In this document: positions 2,782 through 14,432 of the stretch, piece by piece
How the letters are laid out: every line of letters starts with the position of its first letter
How positions within the stretch are numbered: position 1 is the first letter of the stretch
Assembly: GCA_964587655.1 (NCBI GenBank)
Contig: CAZPMT010000001.1
Coordinates: 17,459 to 81,458, forward strand
Source: an uncultured Nitrospiraceae bacterium
GTDB taxonomy: Bacteria > Hydrogenedentota > Hydrogenedentia > Hydrogenedentales > SLHB01
DNA: 64,000 nucleotides
Direction: 5' to 3'
Translations under genes and position numbers: made by a program
The notes under the pieces: model-generated
The model's database searches: none
Told to the model about the DNA's origin: nothing
Seen by the model: only the letters and a program-made list of their open reading frames with translations

Positions 2782-3870
2782 ATGGACTCGCGTGAACGAG
2801 TGTTTCGCACGCTGGCGTTTGAGGAGCCGGACCGGGTTCCAATCGACCTGTGGCTATCAAGCGGGATGCGGGAAAAGCTGACGGGCGCAGGATGGCCGTC
2901 CTATGAGGCGCTTCTCGATTCGTACGACGTGGACTTGCGCTACATCGAGGGGCCTCAGTACGCAGGTCCGGCGTTGCGGACCTTCGCCGACGGTACTGAC
3001 GAGGACCTCTGGGGCGTGCGACGGCGGACCGTGGTCGCGGCAGTCGGTGACGGAACGGAGACGTACAAGGAAGTCGCGTGGTCGCCGCTCGCGGACGCGC
3101 GGTCCGTCGAAGAGGTCGACGCGTACGGGCACTGGCCGTCGCCGGACTGGTTCGACTACGGCGGAATCGAGCGTCAATGCGAAGCCATCCGGCGCGGAGG
3201 GCGGGTCGTCGTGTTCATGGGAGACCGCATGAATCGCCTCGCCCAACTAAAGCCTGCCATGTACATCCGAGGCGTCGAGCAGATCCTGTCGGACATGCTC
3301 ATGAATCCGGAGATTGCCGCGGCGATCTTCGCGCGAATTCGGGATTTCTACCTCGCCTACGCGGAACGTATTTTCGAGGCGGCACGCGGAAAACTCGATA
3401 TGCTTCTCATGGGCGATGATTTTGGTTCTCAGCAGGCCCCGCTGGTTTCTCCTGAGATGTGGATTGATTTTCTGGGCGCGGGCTTCGAAAGCTTCATCGC
3501 GATTGCGAAGCACTATGGCCTGCGGGTCATGCACCACACGTGCGGCAGCGTTCGTCCGCTTGTGCCTCTGATGATCGAGCGCGGGCTGGACGTTCTTCAG
3601 TCGCTTCAGCCAGAAGCCGCGGACATGGATGCGGGAATGCTCAAGCGGGAATTTGGAAAGAGGCTCGCGTTTCACGGCGGGATCTCGATCCAGAAGACGC
3701 TTCCGTTCGGAACGCCGCGCGAAGTGCGGGACGAAGTGCGGGATCGCATACGGGCGCTGGCGCCGGGCGGAGGCTACATCTTATGCACCGCCCACAACAT
3801 CCAGGCCGATACGCCGGTGGAAAACGTGCGGGCGCTACTTGACGCATACCTCGAGTTTAGCGAATATTGA
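2782..3870 (+). CDS. uroporphyrinogen decarboxylase (URO-D) family protein (MtaA/CmuA-like)
   Basis: N-terminal RVFRTLAFEEPDRVPIDLW and overall URO-D-like TIM-barrel sequence pattern; 362 aa. Confidence 0.6.
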   Translation: MDSRERVFRTLAFEEPDRVPIDLWLSSGMREKLTGAGWPSYEALLDSYDVDLRYIEGPQYAGPALRTFADGTDEDLWGVRRRTVVAAVGDGTETYKEVAWSPLADARSVEEVDAYGHWPSPDWFDYGGIERQCEAIRRGGRVVVFMGDRMNRLAQLKPAMYIRGVEQILSDMLMNPEIAAAIFARIRDFYLAYAERIFEAARGKLDMLLMGDDFGSQQAPLVSPEMWIDFLGAGFESFIAIAKHYGLRVMHHTCGSVRPLVPLMIERGLDVLQSLQPEAADMDAGMLKREFGKRLAFHGGISIQKTLPFGTPREVRDEVRDRIRALAPGGGYILCTAHNIQADTPVENVRALLDAYLEFSEY

Positions 3871-3919: not shown

Positions 3920-5017
3920 GTGCTGAAGCAATTGCCCCTCAAACAGCCCAAGCCGGACGTCAAGGAATTCGTCGACATCATTCTCGGGCGGACGAGATCA
4001 AGCCGGACGCCGCTCGTCGAGTACATCGTGGACGACGCGGTGCGGCGGCCCGTGGTCACGGAGCTCCTCGGGCGCGCGTGGGTGGATCACGGTCCCGATC
4101 GCGAAATTCAGAGCACTTACTGGGAAAACTTCATCGCGTTCTGGCACAGGCTGGGCTACGACTTTGTCCGTTTCGAGCAGGGATTGGGCTTCCAGGTCGG
4201 CTCACTCGCCGTGGGTGATACCGCGCCGGGCGTGGACAAGATGCGTCACTGGGCCGATGAGCACCGGGGCGGCATCATGACCTGGGAGGACTTCGAGCGT
4301 TATCCGTGGCCGCGGATCGAAGAAGTGGACTTTTTTCCGATGGAGTATATGAACGCGCATCTCCCGGAAGGCATGGGATTGATCACGTGCCACGGAGGTG
4401 GAGTTTTCGAGCACGTCTCCCGTTTGATGTCATTGGAAGGCATCTGCATCGCCGTCTACGAGAACCCGGAGCTTGTCCGGGCCGTCGCGGACAAAGTGGG
4501 CGAACTGCTGTTTTCTTATTACCGTCATCTCGTGGGTTTCGAGAACGTGGTCGCACTCTTCCAGGGCGACGACATGGGGTTTCGGACACAGACGTTGCTG
4601 GGTCCCGACGATCTGCGCAAGTACTGCCTGCCCTGGCACAAGCGTTTCGCGCGGCTTGCACACGATCACGGCCTCCCCTACTTTCTGCACTCGTGCGGGA
4701 ACATCGAGGCCATCATGGAGGACCTGATCACGAACGTAAACATCGACGCCAAGCATTCCTTCGAGGATGCGATCATGCCCGTGGAGGCGTTTCAGGAACG
4801 CTACGGCGACCGCATTGGCGTATTAGGCGGCGTCGATATCAACCGTTTGACGCAGGACGCTCCCGGCGAGGTCCGGCGTCACACGCGTTTTCTGGTCGAG
4901 ACTTGCGGCGCCCGTGGCCGGTATGCGATCGGTTCGGGCAATTCAATTCCAAGCTACATCCCCGTGGAAAACTACCTGGCGATGATCGATGAAGCGGTGG
5001 AAATGATGCCAAGTTGA
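3920..5017 (+). CDS. URO-D family protein, paralog 2 (GTG start; the ORF-track N-terminal extension is rejected)
   Basis: the in-frame GTG at 3920 is preceded by AAAGGAAA RBS; the track's 462-aa ORF starts inside the upstream gene; URO-D-like sequence (LPWHKRFARLAHDHGLPYFLHSCGNIE). Confidence 0.6.
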   Translation: MLKQLPLKQPKPDVKEFVDIILGRTRSSRTPLVEYIVDDAVRRPVVTELLGRAWVDHGPDREIQSTYWENFIAFWHRLGYDFVRFEQGLGFQVGSLAVGDTAPGVDKMRHWADEHRGGIMTWEDFERYPWPRIEEVDFFPMEYMNAHLPEGMGLITCHGGGVFEHVSRLMSLEGICIAVYENPELVRAVADKVGELLFSYYRHLVGFENVVALFQGDDMGFRTQTLLGPDDLRKYCLPWHKRFARLAHDHGLPYFLHSCGNIEAIMEDLITNVNIDAKHSFEDAIMPVEAFQERYGDRIGVLGGVDINRLTQDAPGEVRRHTRFLVETCGARGRYAIGSGNSIPSYIPVENYLAMIDEAVEMMPS

Positions 5018-5039: not shown

Positions 5040-6380
5040 TTATGTCCCGAGGGTCCATCCCTCGCGGTATGGCGGGTTGATGTACTGATTGGCCTCGGGC
5101 ACGTTGGTTATGGTCATGTTCGGGCTGTCCCAGAGCAGCTTCTTACCGGTGCGGATCGCGATGTTGCCCAGGAGGACGACTTCGGCCAACGGTCCCGCGA
5201 AATCGAAATTGGAGCCTGCGGGTTCGCCGCCTTTGCACGCGTTGATCCACTCTTGGTAATGGCCTGGAGAGCGCGGGAGTTTCTTCGGGGGAGGGCCGTA
5301 TTCCTTCATCCGGGTTTCGGGGATGATGCGGTGGTTCAGCATTTTCCCTTTGTCGCCGACGTAGAGCATGCCATCGCCGCCGCCGAATTGCCGGTCCGGT
5401 TCGAGTTCCTCCGGACGATGCGGCATCAATCCGCCATCGTACCACGTCAGCGTCACGGCGGGCCGGTCCCCTACCGCCGGGAATTCGTAATACACGATCG
5501 AGGCGGTTGGTGCGCTTTCGTTGTTGACTTCGGGCGGACATTGCGCGGCGGTCGACGTTGCTTCGACACTTGTGGGATGTCCCAGTTTGAGCGCCTTGAA
5601 GATCGCGGAAAAGTTGTGGCAGCCGATGTCGCCCAACACGCCCGTGCCGAAATCCCACCAGCCGCGCCAAACGAACGGGTTGTAAGCGTGCTCGACATAT
5701 GGCCGCAGGGGCGCCGGCCCAAGCCAGAGGTCCCAGTCGAGCGTGGCCGGCGCCGGGGAAGATCCTTGTGGGCGCGCCATGCCGCGAGGCGAAATCGAGG
5801 GATTCCGATTGCACCACCCGTGGATCTCGCGCACGTTCCCGATGGCGCCGTCCCAAATAAGCTCGCACAATACGCGTGACTCTTCGGAGGCCTGGCCCTG
5901 GTTGCCCATCTGGGTCGCAACCTTTGCCTTTCGGGCGGCTTCGGCGACCACGCGGGCTTCGTGGATCGAGTGCGTCAGCGGTTTCTCGCAATAGACGTGC
6001 TTACCGAGCTGGATCGCCGCCATTGAGACGACCGCATGCAGGTGGTCCGGGGTACCCACAACCACCGCATCGATGTCCTTCTGTTTTTCGAGCATGACGC
6101 GGAAATCGCGGTATCTCTTGGCCTGGGGATAGCGCTCGTACACTTTCGCCGCGTACGCATCGTCAACGTCGCACAGGGCGACAATGTTCTCACTCTTGAG
6201 ATTGTCGATGTTGTTGCCGCCTTGGCCGCCGACGCCGATCCCGGCGATATTGAGCTTCTCATTGGGCGAAACTTTGCGCCGTTTCTTCTTGGCGGCAACC
6301 GCCGGACCGGCTGCCAAGGCGCCCACGGTTGCGGCAGTTCCCATCAAGAAGTAGCGCCGTGAAATCCCCGCGTCTCTCAT
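5040..6380 (-). CDS. Gfo/Idh/MocA family NAD(P)-dependent oxidoreductase with twin-arginine (Tat) signal peptide
   Basis: MRDAGISRRYFLMGTAATVGALAAGPAVAA Tat signal; Rossmann motif GIGVGGQG; start chosen at the ATG preceded by a GGAGGG RBS. Confidence 0.75.
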   Translation of the reverse strand: MRDAGISRRYFLMGTAATVGALAAGPAVAAKKKRRKVSPNEKLNIAGIGVGGQGGNNIDNLKSENIVALCDVDDAYAAKVYERYPQAKRYRDFRVMLEKQKDIDAVVVGTPDHLHAVVSMAAIQLGKHVYCEKPLTHSIHEARVVAEAARKAKVATQMGNQGQASEESRVLCELIWDGAIGNVREIHGWCNRNPSISPRGMARPQGSSPAPATLDWDLWLGPAPLRPYVEHAYNPFVWRGWWDFGTGVLGDIGCHNFSAIFKALKLGHPTSVEATSTAAQCPPEVNNESAPTASIVYYEFPAVGDRPAVTLTWYDGGLMPHRPEELEPDRQFGGGDGMLYVGDKGKMLNHRIIPETRMKEYGPPPKKLPRSPGHYQEWINACKGGEPAGSNFDFAGPLAEVVLLGNIAIRTGKKLLWDSPNMTITNVPEANQYINPPYREGWTLGT

Positions 6381-6572
6381 GCTGAAATCCCTCCATCGTG
6401 ACTCTTGCGTTGCATTTTCGGGACCATTCCTGTCCGTCATTGTAAGCGTACCGGGCAAGCGCAGGCAACCTACTCACATTCTGTTGGGCCTTGGATCCAA
6501 GATCCGGTCGTTGGTTTGCCCGCGTAGTCGTTTTTTTGGTAGTGTCTTGGCAAACAGAGTAACGGTAGATCC

Positions 6573-7487
6573 ATGCGTATCGATATCGCAGGCCAGACGG
6601 ATATAGGACGCCGGAAGAAGAACAACGAGGATTTCTTCGGCGTTTTCCGTGAAGACACGCCCGATCTGCAACTCTTTGAAGAAGGGGCTTTCCTGTGCGT
6701 GGCGGACGGGCTCGGCGGCCACATGGGGGGAGAGATCGCCAGCAAGCTCGCGGTCTCCATTCTGAGGGACGCCCTGAAGGAAAAGGCCCAGGACCCACAT
6801 GAAGGGGAAGAAGCGGACGACAAGAAATCCGGGATCATCCCCGTGTTGAGCGAAGGGATCCGCCGCGCGAATGAAAGCGTCTATCGCACGAACCTGGACC
6901 TAGTCAAGCGTGAGCGCCCCATGGGTACAACCTTGCTGGGCGTAGTCGTCGAGCGCAAGAAAGTCCATATCGCAAACGTCGGCGACTCCCGCTGCTATCA
7001 CATCCGCGATGCTGAGATCATCGACAAGACCGAGGACCATTCGTGGGTGGACGAACAGGTCAAGCTGGGTCTAATGTCCCGCGCCGAGGCCGAGTCGGAT
7101 TTGCGCCGGAACCTAGTCACCCGCTGCATCGGCACCGAGCCCGAAGTCGCCGTCGACGCTTACGTCTGGCACGTTGTCCCCGGAGACATCCTCCTGCTCT
7201 GCACGGACGGCCTCGTCAACATGGCGAAGGACGCCGACATCGTCGAAGTCTTTCGCAAGCGGGGCACGTCGGCGGAGATCGCCACGCGCCTGGTCAGCCT
7301 GGCCAACGAAAAAGGGGGCCGCGACAACATCACTGTCATCGTAGCGCACATCAGCCCGACCATCGGCCATTTCGTCTCCGGTTTCTTTCGGAAACACTGG
7401 AAAACGATAATCAAAACCATCCTCGTGCTGGCTTTCGGTGCGGCATGCTTCGCCGCGGGCTATTACTTACGAGGAATGGGATTCTGA
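6573..7487 (+). CDS. PP2C-family Ser/Thr protein phosphatase with C-terminal transmembrane anchor
   Basis: GQTDIGRRKKNNED, ADGLGGH, NVGDSRCY and LLCTDGL motifs typical of PP2C; C-terminal hydrophobic helix. Confidence 0.8.
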   Translation: MRIDIAGQTDIGRRKKNNEDFFGVFREDTPDLQLFEEGAFLCVADGLGGHMGGEIASKLAVSILRDALKEKAQDPHEGEEADDKKSGIIPVLSEGIRRANESVYRTNLDLVKRERPMGTTLLGVVVERKKVHIANVGDSRCYHIRDAEIIDKTEDHSWVDEQVKLGLMSRAEAESDLRRNLVTRCIGTEPEVAVDAYVWHVVPGDILLLCTDGLVNMAKDADIVEVFRKRGTSAEIATRLVSLANEKGGRDNITVIVAHISPTIGHFVSGFFRKHWKTIIKTILVLAFGAACFAAGYYLRGMGF

Positions 7488-9990: not shown

Positions 9991-12900
9991 ATGCCTGCAT
10001 TGTTGGACGAGTATATATTCACAGGCGTAACGGGCAATGCGGCGTGGGCCGCCATCAAGACGGCGTGGGAAGTCGCCACTAAGAAGTCATGGGAACAGAT
10101 CTATCTCGACGCGTTCCCGAAGGCGCTTGCCGCTTCGAAGGAACAACCCAGGAAGTACACTGATGGCGCTGAGCCTTTATTGAATGGCGCCGCCCTGCAG
10201 CGCGCCATCACACGCGCGGCGGCGTCACCGCTTGCCGACCACGCTCTCACCGAGTTGACCGGGGATGCACTCGTGAAACATCTCGGGGCCGTCATGGCCG
10301 AGGAGCGGGTAATCGAGTTCGAGGGGAACAACCTGGCGGAGGAAGGATACGCACAGGTAGTGCGCAACCTCGTCCGCTCTGCCCATGCCGTCTTCTGGGA
10401 CGGTGTCGTGAAGAACGAGACGGCCTTCCGCAATGGCGTGTTCTTGGAGTTCCAGGCGAACCGCGCCCAACTACAAGACATCAAAGACGCCCTCTCTAAG
10501 CTCAGCCTGTTGAAAGCGCTGGACGAGAAACAGGATTACCAGACACGGCTTCTCGAGCGGCAGTCGCTTTCAATGGACGAGATCAAGGGTATTGTCTTGC
10601 GCATTGAAGAGCGCCTCGCCCGGAAATCCTTCGATAGGGAACTGGACGAGGTACTGCCTCCCGCGAAGCGAGAGCCTGCGGGTGCACCGAAGTTCGAAGC
10701 CGACTTCGTTCATGCCTATCCGCTGCAAGCGAACTTCACGGGGCGGAAAACGGAACGCCAGGCGCTTCTCGACGTGAAGTATGACGTTTTCGTCAGCTAT
10801 AGCCATAAGGACAAAGAATGGGTGCACGGACGGCTATTGCCCGGTCTGGAGAGATCGGGACTGAAGGTGTGCCTTGACTTTCGGGACTTTGAGCTGGGCG
10901 TTTCAGCGGCCATCAACATGGAGCGCGCAGTGCAGCAAAGCCGGAAGACCATTCTCGTGCTTACACCGAACTGGGTCGAAAGCGAGTGGACGGAATTTGA
11001 GTCCCTGCTGATCCAGACCAAAGATCCGGCAGGCCGGCGTCAACGCATGTTGCCGGTGATGCTCGAGGAATGCAGCCTGCCTGACCGTTTGAGCATTCTG
11101 ACGTATGCGGACTTCAGAAATGAACAGGATTGGGAGTTCCAACTCGAGCGCGTGTTGCGCACACTCTGTGTTGAAAGGACAACTGCTCCGCCAAGCGATA
11201 AGCTTCCCGTAGTCCAACCCATCATCCAGCCCGATTTTGTCCATCCGTATCCGCTGCAAGCTAACTTCACGGGGCGGAAGAAGGAACGCGGCGCGCTGAC
11301 GACGTGGTTTGTCCAGCGTGAGCAGCCGGTGTATGCCGTGGTCGCCATAGGGGGTATGGGCAAGTCGGCGGTAACGTGGGTGTGGGTGTTGCAGGATCTG
11401 CTGGGGCTGCGCACATTCACGAAGGAGGCGTGCGCGGTCGAGCAGGAGAACCGTCCCGAGGGGGTGTTGTGGTGGAGCTTCTATGACAGCAAGGCACGGT
11501 TTGCGTCGTTCCTAGATCGCGCGCTGGAATACGCGAGCGGCGGGGCCGTGGACCCGCGCGGGATACCGTCGGAACACGACAAGGCGGACAAGCTCATCGA
11601 CCTGCTCGAAAAGCGCGACATCCTCCTGGTGCTCGATGGGTTTGAGCGTGAACTCCGGGCGTATGCGAGTCTGAACGCGCCATACATGGGAGACGGTGAG
11701 GAAAGACACGAGGTCACGGAACAGCGCGTGTGCGTCGACCCGCACGCGGCCTACTTCCTCCAGTGGGCGGCGTCACTGCCGTTGCGGGGCCGGATCCTGA
11801 TGACGACCCGCCTCATGCCGCGCGATCTGGAGGGGAACGACGGCAATCCACTTGACGGCTGTGCGAATAACGAACTGAAAGGCTTCGACCCGGCCGATGT
11901 GGCGGCTTTCTTCCGCGCCGAGGGCATCAAAGGAATGCCATCCGAGATCAAGGCGGCCTGCGCTCCTTACGCATACCATCCACTCGCCGTTCGGCTGTTG
12001 GCCGGGGCGATCATCCGAGACAAACGCAAACCGCGGGACATTGAGACCGCCAAGCGGCACGTGGTCACGGCGGAACTGAAGGGCAAGGACAAGCATCACA
12101 TCCTGCAGGTGGCTTACGATGAATTGGCCGCGAAGCGCCGCAAAATCCTGAGCCAGATCGCCGCGTTCCGCAATCCCATGACCTTCGAAACCTTGGCGGC
12201 CGTGCTGCCCGTGAGCGGCGCACACGAACTGGAAGTCATCCTGGACGAGTTGGTCGAGCGCGGCCTGCTGCTCTGCAACGACGGCCTATACGACCTGCAT
12301 CCCGTCGTGCGGCAATATGCCTACGAACGGCTGACGGACAAGGAAGGCGTCCACACGCGCTTGCGCGACCATTTCAGCGCCGTGCCCATGCCGCAGGACA
12401 CGGAGAAGGTCAAATGCATCGAAAACCTCGACCCCGTGATCGAGCTGTACCACCACACGGTCCGGGCGGGGCAGTTCGACGAGGCCTGTGACGTATTCTA
12501 CGTGCGTCTCCAGGACGTTCTGTACTACCGCTTCGGGGCGTACGATCGCTGCATTGAACTCTTGTGCGCACTGTTCCCGGAGGGAGAGCCTTTGGTCAAA
12601 GACGGCCAGGCCAAGGTACCACGACTGACGAAGGAATCCGACCAAGCCTGGGCGCTGAACGCCCTTGCCTGCTGTTGCAGTGCGTCCGGCCAACCCCGGC
12701 GGGCTTTGCCGCTGTTTGAGCTACAGAACAAGCTCCGGGATGACGCAAAGGACGAGATGAATCTTGCCATTGGCCTGGAAAACTTGGCCTGTATGGCGCA
12801 ACTCCACCTCGGCCAACTGGGTGCTGCCGAAGAGAACCTCCGTCGGAGCATCGCCTTGTCTCGGGAGATTAGGGACGCGCTCGGGGTGGCTGACGCGTGC

Positions 12901-13578
12901 CAGAATTTGGGGCTGTTGCTGGCATGCCTGGGAGGGTTTGGTGAGAGCGAGACAGAATTGGACGCGGCGGTGCGGGGCTTCAAGGAGCAAGAAAAGACGC
13001 AGGGCGAGGGCATCGTTGAGTGCAGCCGCGCCCTGCGGGCCATCATCATGGGAGATGCCCAAGCCGCGTTGGCAGCCGCCCGTCACGCGCTGGAGTTGTG
13101 GCACAAGACGGCAAGAGAGAGATTCCGCTACGAGCGCGACCGCGTGCGGGTCGAGTGGTTGGTAGGCTGGGCGCTGACGGCCCTGGCGGAAGAGCGGCCG
13201 GGGGACGTGGCCAGTCTCCTTGCCGAGGCCGAACAGCATCTCACCGAGGCACTGACCCGTTGCCGGAACATCAACATGGTCGATCACGAGCCGGACATTC
13301 TCCTGGCTTGGGCGCGTTGGCATTTCGCGAAAGGGGACGCGGTTCGCGCGAGCCAGTGGGCTGCGGAGGCCCTATTCATCGCCGACCGGTGCGAGTACCG
13401 GCTGAAGCAGGCCGACATCCACAACTTCCTTGCGCGGCTTGCGCTTGATGCCGGTGACAAGGCCGCAGCACGAAGCGAAGCCGGGATCGCGAAGGAACGC
13501 GCTTGGTGCGACGGCCCACCGCATTGTTACAAACCCGCCCTCGATGAAGCCGAACGCCTGTTGAAAGAGATCGGGTAA
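9991..13578 (+). CDS. TIR-domain / STAND (NB-ARC-like P-loop NTPase) / TPR-repeat protein with ~250-aa unknown N-terminal domain; candidate defense or signalling NTPase
   Basis: TIR: YDVFVSYSHKDKEWVHGRLL...; P-loop AIGGMGKSAVTW, Walker B ILLVLDGFE; C-terminal TPR-like helical repeats; an intragenic direct repeat (10702-10759 / 11233-11290) brackets the TIR. Confidence 0.8.
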   Translation: MPALLDEYIFTGVTGNAAWAAIKTAWEVATKKSWEQIYLDAFPKALAASKEQPRKYTDGAEPLLNGAALQRAITRAAASPLADHALTELTGDALVKHLGAVMAEERVIEFEGNNLAEEGYAQVVRNLVRSAHAVFWDGVVKNETAFRNGVFLEFQANRAQLQDIKDALSKLSLLKALDEKQDYQTRLLERQSLSMDEIKGIVLRIEERLARKSFDRELDEVLPPAKREPAGAPKFEADFVHAYPLQANFTGRKTERQALLDVKYDVFVSYSHKDKEWVHGRLLPGLERSGLKVCLDFRDFELGVSAAINMERAVQQSRKTILVLTPNWVESEWTEFESLLIQTKDPAGRRQRMLPVMLEECSLPDRLSILTYADFRNEQDWEFQLERVLRTLCVERTTAPPSDKLPVVQPIIQPDFVHPYPLQANFTGRKKERGALTTWFVQREQPVYAVVAIGGMGKSAVTWVWVLQDLLGLRTFTKEACAVEQENRPEGVLWWSFYDSKARFASFLDRALEYASGGAVDPRGIPSEHDKADKLIDLLEKRDILLVLDGFERELRAYASLNAPYMGDGEERHEVTEQRVCVDPHAAYFLQWAASLPLRGRILMTTRLMPRDLEGNDGNPLDGCANNELKGFDPADVAAFFRAEGIKGMPSEIKAACAPYAYHPLAVRLLAGAIIRDKRKPRDIETAKRHVVTAELKGKDKHHILQVAYDELAAKRRKILSQIAAFRNPMTFETLAAVLPVSGAHELEVILDELVERGLLLCNDGLYDLHPVVRQYAYERLTDKEGVHTRLRDHFSAVPMPQDTEKVKCIENLDPVIELYHHTVRAGQFDEACDVFYVRLQDVLYYRFGAYDRCIELLCALFPEGEPLVKDGQAKVPRLTKESDQAWALNALACCCSASGQPRRALPLFELQNKLRDDAKDEMNLAIGLENLACMAQLHLGQLGAAEENLRRSIALSREIRDALGVADACQNLGLLLACLGGFGESETELDAAVRGFKEQEKTQGEGIVECSRALRAIIMGDAQAALAAARHALELWHKTARERFRYERDRVRVEWLVGWALTALAEERPGDVASLLAEAEQHLTEALTRCRNINMVDHEPDILLAWARWHFAKGDAVRASQWAAEALFIADRCEYRLKQADIHNFLARLALDAGDKAAARSEAGIAKERAWCDGPPHCYKPALDEAERLLKEIG

Positions 13579-13776: not shown

Positions 13777-13968
13777 CTATTTTGCTGCGTCTTCCCGCCG
13801 CTTGGCGGCAGATTGCCACATTCTTGCCGCAGGGCTGTCGGCGGTTGCAAGCCTGTGAAGACGCTTCTGACGCTCTTCCTCCGCCGTCAATCCCTCGTAC
13901 TCATTCAGAAGCTCTGCCTGGATGCGGTTCTTCATCTCAATGCAGTCAAATGCCATTTTGTCGTTCAT
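13777..13968 (-). CDS. small (~63 aa) protein, paralog A of a 3-member family (FDC[VI]EM motif) encoded immediately downstream of nuclease genes; putative antitoxin/partner
   Basis: MNDKMAFDCIEMKNRIQAELLNEYEGL... paralogous to 32186-32383 and 30787-30963; starts 2 nt after the PIN gene stop. Confidence 0.45.
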   Translation of the reverse strand: MNDKMAFDCIEMKNRIQAELLNEYEGLTAEEERQKRLHRLATADSPAARMWQSAAKRREDAAK

Positions 13969-13970
13969 GG

Positions 13971-14432
13971 CTAGACGACCTCCTTTGGAGAACGAATCTC
14001 GACTAACGGATACCCTTGTTGAAGGTTGACCGCGTTGAAACCGCGGATCTTGTCGAGATGAACAATGTGCTTGAAGTTCCAACTTACGATCATGTCCACA
14101 CGTTCCACCGACGCGATAGCGACATGGTGCGCGTCATTGCGCGAGGCCCTTCCTACAATGCTCGCTTCAAGATAACCGTCGCGTAATGCCTCCGACTCAA
14201 ACGAGCTTTCCACCAACTCATAGGCGTGATCGGGCAAGTCTGCCAGTAAGGCCTGAATCTCGCGCGGCGCCTTGTCCAGTTCGTCCAAGACAACATCGGA
14301 AATGACAAACACGACCCTGCCTGCTCGAGCCATTTCAAAGAGCGCCGAGCTTTCCGAAGCGAATTTCCCGTCCAAACACCCTCCTACCACCGAGGTGTCT
14401 ATGTAGATGCGCTGTTTTCTCATGTGCCGCAT
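13971..14432 (-). CDS. PIN-domain ribonuclease (VapC-like toxin)
   Basis: RIYIDTSVV N-terminal PIN motif, SWNFKHIV C-terminal motif, conserved acidic residues; paralog at 32364-32843. Confidence 0.75.
   Translation of the reverse strand: MRHMRKQRIYIDTSVVGGCLDGKFASESSALFEMARAGRVVFVISDVVLDELDKAPREIQALLADLPDHAYELVESSFESEALRDGYLEASIVGRASRNDAHHVAIASVERVDMIVSWNFKHIVHLDKIRGFNAVNLQQGYPLVEIRSPKEVV

Follow-up and report, generated by a model that had tools for sequence, protein, structure and literature searches.

A putative toxin-first PIN/small-protein cassette at the avd-RT junction of diversity-generating retroelements in Hydrogenedentes

Three related genes of about 60 codons lie on the minus strand of a 64,000-nt stretch of DNA from an uncultured Nitrospiraceae bacterium (Hydrogenedentota in the GTDB; contig CAZPMT010000001.1 of assembly GCA_964587655.1, positions 17,459 to 81,458), hereafter called the window. 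Two of the small genes directly follow a complete PIN-domain gene, and two end on the start of a reverse transcriptase (RT) gene of a diversity-generating retroelement (DGR). The explanation that we favour, with a probability of about 0.6, is that PIN and small gene form a toxin-first PIN/antitoxin-like cassette that has repeatedly lodged in a DGR junction; toxicity, binding and neutralisation are inferred parts of the scheme below.

On this reading the two genes make up a self-contained cassette of ~650 bp. The first is predicted to encode a VapC-like PIN ribonuclease. The second gene starts within or right next to the PIN 3' end and would be translationally coupled to the first, and its ~60-residue product would bind and neutralise the PIN nuclease, making a type II toxin-antitoxin (TA)-like pair in toxin-first order. 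A cassette embedded in a DGR would be transcribed from the DGR operon, because there is no room for a promoter of its own after the accessory gene avd. RT translation would be coupled to that of the small gene, which ends on a TGA within the RT start, and the cassette would persist in the DGR as a selfish or stabilising passenger. The genes of the three window copies are listed here with the values obtained from profile hidden Markov models (HMMs).

13971..14432, minus strand: PIN1, stand-alone PIN-domain gene (Pfam PIN_3, 2.6e-6; family HMM, E 3.4e-78)
13777..13968, minus strand: small1, 63-aa partner gene (independent profile, E 1.8e-13)
32364..32843, minus strand: PIN2, intact PIN gene inside the DGR operon (family HMM, E 1.3e-68)
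32186..32374, minus strand: small3, 62-aa partner gene (independent profile, E 3.7e-19)
30786..30965, minus strand: small2, orphan partner gene of 59 aa, intact, with GGAGG as its Shine-Dalgarno sequence (independent profile, E 3.9e-20)

The small-protein family and its PIN partner

The original prediction described three homologous small genes, and this was confirmed at 13777-13968, 30786-30965 and 32186-32374 (all minus strand) by sequence identity and by an independent HMM. Small2 and small3 are 50% identical (E 2e-15), and small1 is ~30% identical to both. The independent HMM was built from 101 loci of other genomes and contained zero window sequences. Among 1323 six-frame open reading frame (ORF) pieces it matched only small2, small3 and small1 (3.9e-20, 3.7e-19 and 1.8e-13; the next value was 0.66). 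The pairwise ratio of nonsynonymous to synonymous substitutions (dN/dS) of the small genes was 0.12-0.34, orphan copies included, and 0.16 for small2 against small3. That the small ORFs might be non-coding and confined to this genome, a possibility raised with the original prediction, is clearly contradicted by these ratios and by the homologs in other genomes. When 1.84 billion representative proteins were searched with a profile, 1524 clusters (at 50% identity) fell into the family at E<=1e-3 and 242 at E<=1e-10. The small proteins are therefore a conserved family, as had been proposed, and a toxin-first position beside a PIN gene is its rule. For small3, 26 close homologs of 57-69 aa were found, and in public records the small proteins carry the name 'hypothetical protein' from Candidatus Hydrogenedentes. 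No model for the small protein was found in Pfam, NCBIfam or PADLOC with any of the variants tried (single sequences, divergent members and profiles), and sequence searches of the PDB returned no family for the small protein and no solved relative for the PIN protein.

The pairing was followed in 80 genome and 80 metagenome loci collected via the PIN protein, of which 156 carry a full-length PIN. A small-family HMM match (E<=0.01) starting no more than 150 nt from the PIN stop was present in 126 of these 156 loci. Among the other 30, a divergent ORF of the FDAV.F.R..R type (e.g. MKKEFDAVKFQRKVREELS) occupies the same position in 29, and one locus (L085) runs off its contig. A partner directly after the PIN gene, in a conserved co-directional bicistron, is thus found in 155/156 loci. 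The small gene mostly overlaps the PIN 3' end by 4-20 nt, with a modal overlap of 11-14 nt. Over 101 loci the identity matrices of the PIN and small proteins co-vary (Mantel r 0.68, a value reached by 0 of 999 permutations), the partner being less conserved than the PIN (mean identity 31% vs 46%). Because 155 of the 156 loci pair the small gene with one PIN family and because the identities co-vary, the small protein is, by these patterns, a specific downstream partner of a single PIN family, with an SWNFKH motif and a VapC-like fold, rather than a promiscuous one.

The same loci bear out the reversed, toxin-first order that had been noticed in the window, as PIN followed by small gene is the rule across them. 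They come from Planctomycetota, Verrucomicrobiota, Bacteroidota, Acidobacteriota, Nitrospirae, Proteobacteria and others, and from the archaeal Methanosarcinales and Thermoplasmata. PIN1 has more than 4463 homolog clusters, many of them named PIN domain protein of Candidatus Hydrogenedentes. Since the PIN2 clade was absent from 2.9 million viral contigs, in which the wider PIN family gave only 6 matches, the pair is not a phage-borne trait.

In the window, the two small genes said to follow PIN genes do so, and both PIN genes (13971-14432 and 32364-32843) are complete, with Pfam PIN_3 matches. PIN1 probably starts at the ATG at 14423, as its homologs are 150 aa long, and PIN2 at the ATG at 32831, 1 nt past the Avd stop. 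The most likely start of small1 is the ATG at 13968, 2 nt past the PIN1 stop, and its Shine-Dalgarno sequence AAGGAGG lies within the final PIN1 codons. A 101-aa ORF with a TTG start that overlaps PIN1 was rejected as small1, being a product of mechanical ORF listing. The small3 ATG overlaps the final 11 nt of PIN2, and the small3 TGA overlaps the RT ATG (ATGA). All three window copies have GGAGG 9-10 nt before the small ATG, provided by the conserved codons for the C-terminal E-V-V of the PIN. Upstream of the PIN genes we found no conserved motif or promoter, no enriched 8-mer and nothing in a promoter scan. A sequence common to PIN1 and L179, TTCTGAATTC, was considered as a 5' signal of the cassette and rejected as coincidence, no 8-mer being enriched.

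The AF2 model of PIN2 has a pLDDT of 92.8, and its top 25 Foldseek matches in the PDB were almost all VapC toxins. Residues D11, E50 and D98 are invariant in the PIN alignments, which also contain the family-specific SWNFKH motif. The AF2 model of small3 is a helical hairpin (pLDDT 80 overall), with predicted helices at residues 10-25 and 30-47, a core pLDDT above 90 and a variable tail. The conserved core spans 45 residues (K.FDCVEM..R.AL.IYEE.K.MT.EE.LAYW). No specific structural relative of the model was found and no DNA-binding fold was recognised in it. Some family members are tandem two-domain proteins of 110-155 aa or occur as two adjacent copies (P0147, P0148, P0152 and others; L004 5995-6453 and L168 4269-4553). 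The existence of these tandem and adjacent duplicates hints that two hairpins may pair to give the functional unit, a four-helix bundle. One family member is fused to DUF4926 and one has a HicA_toxin match.

The two genes do not decay alike. An intact PIN gene has an intact partner in 155 of 156 loci. In 4 of the 10 contexts reached via the small gene (L004, L170, L172 and small2 of the window), the PIN gene is broken or absent and the small gene is intact. Such asymmetry is the pattern that would be expected if the PIN protein were harmful without its partner. The toxin/antitoxin reading is suggested because the PIN gene is lost while the small gene is kept under purifying selection.

Cassettes between avd and the RT gene

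PIN2 and small3 lie inside a DGR, the remaining genes of which are the following.

33891..37853, minus strand: DGR target gene (Pfam: 6 PASTA, BACON, and a C-terminal FGE-sulfatase/CLec domain)
33189..33569, minus strand: four-helix-bundle gene (TIGR02436 / 23S_rRNA_IVP) between target and avd (NCBIfam 1.1e-24, Pfam 3.2e-20)
32833..33192, minus strand: avd, DGR accessory gene (NF033474 DivGenRetAVD 1.1e-27; Pfam bAvd 1.4e-21)
31714..32189, minus strand: DGR RT pseudogene, N-terminal ~159 codons in two frames, with DNA homology ending at 31714

The small gene had been reported to share its stop with an RT start at two places in the window, and the ATGA overlaps are indeed present at 32186-32189 and 30786-30789. 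The ORFs that they open, which had been called DGR-type, are N-terminal pieces of a DGR-clade RT. The junction also proved to be conserved, as it recurs in intact DGRs. One of these (L006/L007) has the order target, Avd, 157-aa PIN, 59-aa small protein, 339-aa RT and template repeat (TR), and 28 A-to-N differences separate its variable repeat (VR, L006 3099-3224) from its TR (6354-6479). L179 and the contig of P0313 share the order target-Avd-PIN-small-RT-TR and have intact RTs. The stop/start junction of small gene and RT gene is ATGA or GTGA.

A close relative of one of these DGRs does without the cassette. L181 and L179 are 89% identical in RT and 86% in Avd, and L181 has no PIN-small pair. 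Their DNA alignment has a clean 652-bp indel that corresponds to PIN-small and lies exactly between Avd stop and RT start. In L179 a TGAA stands on both sides of the insertion (3565-3600 and 4215-4230), and L181 has a single TGAA (4470-4480); the pair could be a 4-bp target duplication or microhomology. Compared with L181, the window has an insertion of 662 bp (32856-32195) at the same Avd|RT point. Two other related DGRs that lack PIN-small carry an IS200-like Y1 transposase gene at the Avd|RT junction (L182, 4542-5135) or a DUF2283 gene before the RT (L180, 5566-5799). Because PIN-small, a transposase gene or a DUF2283 gene is found there in related DGRs, small insertions seem to favour the Avd|RT junction as a hotspot.

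The window RT shares 85% identity with that of L179, yet the PINs of the two loci share only 59%, and PIN2 is closer (75%) to the PIN of a stand-alone cassette (L171). Because of these figures, the histories of PIN and RT evidently disagree. An RT or Avd gene near the cassette was found in 0/80 genome loci and 3/80 metagenome loci (closest PIN2 relatives), and more than 150 cassettes have neither within 4-5 kb. On this count the cassette is normally stand-alone, as at 13777-14432, where no RT is found nearby and a convergent gene ends at 13578, where it has its own surroundings. It is dispensable and mobile relative to the DGR, and it has been inserted or exchanged more than once at exactly the Avd-stop/RT-start point of one Hydrogenedentes DGR clade.

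The window DGR retains the hallmarks of an Avd, 72-77% identical to those of L179, L181 and L182, and of a target of CLec/FGE-sulfatase type (FGE-sulfatase domain 1.8e-46, Pfam). The 3' end of the target, at ~33887-34022, is VR-like and 71-74% identical to the TR and VR of L006, L181 and L182. A sensitive blastn search found no TR for this VR-like sequence (33887-34022) anywhere in the 64-kb window. The RT gene has a 1-nt frameshift near 31950-31995 (alignment of 481 nt vs 482 nt), and it can be aligned with the DNA of L181, L182 and L006 only as far as 31714, at codon ~159 of ~335. Because the RT is frameshifted and truncated and the TR is absent from the 64 kb, the window DGR is dead. PIN2-small3 is intact despite this decay. 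The same holds elsewhere: L089/L090 has lost RT residues 69-273 and part of Avd, and in L001/L088 only a 15-codon RT remnant is left after the small gene of a decayed DGR, with PIN-small intact in both. Intact PIN-small has thus outlasted three independently decayed DGRs.

In L006, the sequence just downstream of the RT (6053-6295) is repeated at 58-378 with 73-77% identity. The two copies bracket most of the DGR, the one at 58-378 lying before the target gene or inside its 5' end.

Known systems and alternative readings

The pair resembles VapBC in its VapC-like PIN fold with conserved acidic residues, in being a small, co-directional and overlapping gene pair that is patchy over phyla and present in multiple copies, in a partner that evolves faster than the PIN, and in a toxin gene that decays while its partner survives. 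It differs from VapBC in the reversed, PIN-first order, in a two-helix hairpin partner that matches none of the RHH, AbrB, Phd or HTH antitoxins, and in an Asn at the place of the fourth catalytic acid. With the toxin-first type II systems HigBA, HicAB and MqsRA it shares a first toxin gene, a second antitoxin gene and translational coupling. The toxins of those systems are RelE-like, HicA or MqsR proteins rather than PIN proteins, and their antitoxins have HTH or RHH DNA-binding domains.

TA pairs lodged between core genes of a mobile or retroelement have a parallel in Tn3-family transposons, in which TA pairs, including ones with PIN_3 toxins, lie within the transposition module (PMC7157771). 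They were acquired several times, are exchanged by recombination and may use the promoter of the element, and in one example a truncated toxin accompanies an intact antitoxin (PMC7157771). In contrast, the host site here is the DGR Avd|RT junction, and the PIN_3 pairs of Tn3 elements are antitoxin-first with RHH_6. Full-text literature searches did not turn up any account of a PIN or TA cassette within a DGR. What is new is the uncatalogued partner family and the insertion niche, and what is known is the VapC-like toxin fold and the occurrence of TA pairs within mobile elements. The small family is thus a candidate new antitoxin class, toxin-first and the invariable partner of a widespread PIN_3-like nuclease, and the Avd-stop/RT-start point of one DGR clade is a place where small, presumably selfish cassettes dock again and again, in parallel to the Tn3 pairs.

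Several observations weigh against a toxin/antitoxin cassette that is a mere passenger. Where PIN proteins canonically have a fourth acidic residue, this family has an invariant Asn (Asn117, in SWNF), and the DGR-embedded PIN clade lacks a near-invariant Asp at alignment position 111; because of these two replacements, nuclease activity of the PIN protein may not be taken as guaranteed. The embedded cassette leaves no room for an autoregulated promoter, with a gap after Avd of 1 nt (window) or 19 nt (L179). Finally, 3 of the 6 sampled contexts with a (near-)full-length RT in the clade carry the cassette at the identical junction, a recurrence that is compatible with a real role in DGR biology. 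A contribution of the cassette to DGR function or regulation is favoured by this recurrence at one junction, and is opposed by its absence from a near-identical DGR and its mostly non-DGR occurrence. It is therefore doubtful that PIN-small is a recurrently recruited functional module of the Hydrogenedentes DGR clade, in which RT synthesis would be coupled to antitoxin translation and the PIN would act on TR RNA or enforce retention of the DGR. If this were true, the diversity generator would be TA-gated or TA-stabilised, and its antitoxin would belong to a fold family not described before.

The strict co-occurrence and co-diversification of the two genes, the Asn in place of the fourth catalytic acid and the lack of a DNA-binding fold in the partner would also suit a non-toxic two-subunit nuclease or regulator, perhaps in defence or RNA processing, with the small protein as obligate cofactor, specificity subunit or chaperone; the tandem two-domain small proteins would then suggest a structural dimer. 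We consider this unlikely, since orphan small genes under purifying selection beside decayed PINs would be unexpected for a mere cofactor, while TA-like selfish modules typically show a patchy spread over phyla and archaea and insert into other operons, as this pair does. PADLOC, moreover, gave no match.

The original prediction had also offered an accessory gene of the retroelement. In that case PIN-small would be a genuine DGR accessory module of the Hydrogenedentes clade, serving in TR transcript processing, removal of template RNA or gating of RT translation. The identical Avd|RT position and RT stop/start overlap in the window (twice), L001, L006, L089/L090, L179 and the P0313 contig would fit such a module, as would the three cassette-bearing contexts among the six, and the presence of different PIN lineages at one junction could reflect selection for function. 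The described DGR accessory genes are avd, HRDC, MSL and CH1, with no PIN among them (PMC5758913). Like these, PIN-small consists of small genes that lie inside the DGR in the orientation of the RT. Unlike these, it is absent from close DGR relatives and lies overwhelmingly outside DGRs. A component required by the DGR would be conserved across related DGRs and largely restricted to them, and PIN-small is neither: L181, with its intact RT, L182 and L180 lack it, RT or Avd genes are as rare near cassettes as given above, and the cassette has survived the decay of the DGR at three loci. The accessory gene as a required component did not hold up, and an accessory module in the broader sense is improbable.

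The third copy and other neighbours of the cassettes

The third small gene, small2, had been seen as the partner of a GxxExxY gene upstream of it. The features on this side of the RT pseudogene are as follows.

31051..31713, minus strand: block in place of the remaining RT (57-nt repeat, hairpin-type direct repeats and GxxExxY gene)
31023-31508, minus strand: GxxExxY / PDDEXK_3 gene (GxxExxY, TIGR04256, 126 bits vs a cutoff of 35; the ORF reads through the downstream repeat)
30955..31047, minus strand: PIN C-terminal remnant of 31 codons, RIPLYNG...EVVSYDDED* (tblastn E 2e-8; PIN HMM E 2.5e-6)
30613..30789, minus strand: second RT N-terminal remnant, MKRIGHVFEQV... (47% identity with residues 1-60 of the RT pseudogene, E 2e-9)

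On the minus strand from 37853 to 30600, the order is target, TIGR02436 gene, avd, PIN2, small3, RT pseudogene, GxxExxY block, PIN remnant, small2 and RT remnant. The assignment of 31023-31508 to the GxxExxY type of PD-(D/E)XK nucleases was confirmed as GxxExxY / PDDEXK_3. Between this gene and small2, residues 130-159 of PIN2 align to 31047-30955 with 68% identity (tblastn E 2e-8), and positions 125-150 of the PIN HMM match the same remnant (E 2.5e-6). The remnant (RIPLYNG...HTPQEVV) starts ~5 nt past the downstream hairpin repeat of the GxxExxY block. This second PIN-small-RT unit has ~70% DNA identity to the first, and its RT remnant is convincing over ~30 codons before it enters the 3' end of the convergent gene 28968-30695. 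Because a PIN C-terminal remnant lies between the GxxExxY gene and small2, copy 3 is a PIN-small-RT duplicate, truncated and lying against a GxxExxY cassette, and the GxxExxY gene is an intruder and not the partner of small2.

A single small partner serving both PIN and PD-(D/E)XK GxxExxY toxins, as the original prediction had entertained, would fit the position of small2 58 nt downstream of the GxxExxY ORF and a GxxExxY gene that also adjoins the small gene in L001/L088, but it is effectively refuted by the intervening PIN remnant, by the opposite order in L001, where the GxxExxY gene is downstream of the small gene and after the 15-codon RT remnant, by the flanking hairpin repeats that the GxxExxY cassette has of its own, and by the 160 PIN-selected loci, in which GxxExxY-like matches occur only in L088 and in L148/L149 (weak, ~500 nt upstream of PIN) and never (0/160) directly upstream of a small gene. 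Neither the GxxExxY-partner module nor the promiscuous antitoxin survives, as the partner belongs to one PIN family (126/156 by HMM, 29 of the other 30 FDAV-type) and its adjacency to GxxExxY is secondary.

The direct repeats beside the GxxExxY gene were also borne out, as 66-nt sequences at 31056-31121 and 31520-31585 that flank it and are 83% identical. They are hairpin-forming: copy a of the window has a DNA fold z of -3.95, and the L001 repeats (6332-6361 and 6799-6828) one of -5.66. L001/L088 has a PIN 91% identical to PIN2 and a different GxxExxY gene (69% nt identity), likewise bracketed by hairpin repeats. In both lineages the GxxExxY cassettes (window 31051-31713, L001 6190-6830) occupy the place of the 3' part of the DGR RT, directly after the small gene. 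This shared place suggests that GxxExxY cassettes are small mobile units and that DGR RT genes are repeatedly hit, or deleted, by them.

Under the favoured explanation, the history of the window would be that the host DGR died while PIN2-small3 stayed intact, that a second, older copy was left with a PIN reduced to 31 codons, its small gene and an RT start, and that a GxxExxY cassette with hairpin repeats fills the gap between the two PIN-small copies. For annotation, this would explain a confusing locus as a dead DGR with a partial duplicate and a GxxExxY insertion, and it warns that physical adjacency need not mean partnership.

A 57-nt repeat is present at 31588-31644, right after the RT truncation, and at 33761-33817, downstream of the target (84% identical). 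It was considered as a sequence associated with the GxxExxY and four-helix-bundle genes; this was dropped since the copy downstream of the target is 90% conserved at the corresponding place in L179 (2623-2674). The repeat is more likely a DGR-intrinsic sequence, and its second copy (31588-31644) may be what is left of DNA that once lay beside the lost TR.

The TIGR02436 ('23S rRNA IVS protein') gene at 33189-33569 overlaps the avd start by 4 nt. Because the related DGRs L179 and L181 have no called gene in the spacer between target and avd, it looks like another inserted small gene. Beside the stand-alone cassette, the convergent gene 9991-13578 (plus strand) encodes a 1195-aa protein with a TIR domain (TIR_2 1.4e-24) and TPR repeats, probably a STAND-like protein of the conflict/defence type. 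At 28968-30695 (plus strand) lies a 575-aa ORF without a Pfam match, whose Pro/Ala-rich C-terminus is antisense to the second RT remnant. The ORF may continue only spuriously, at its 3' end, into decayed DGR sequence.

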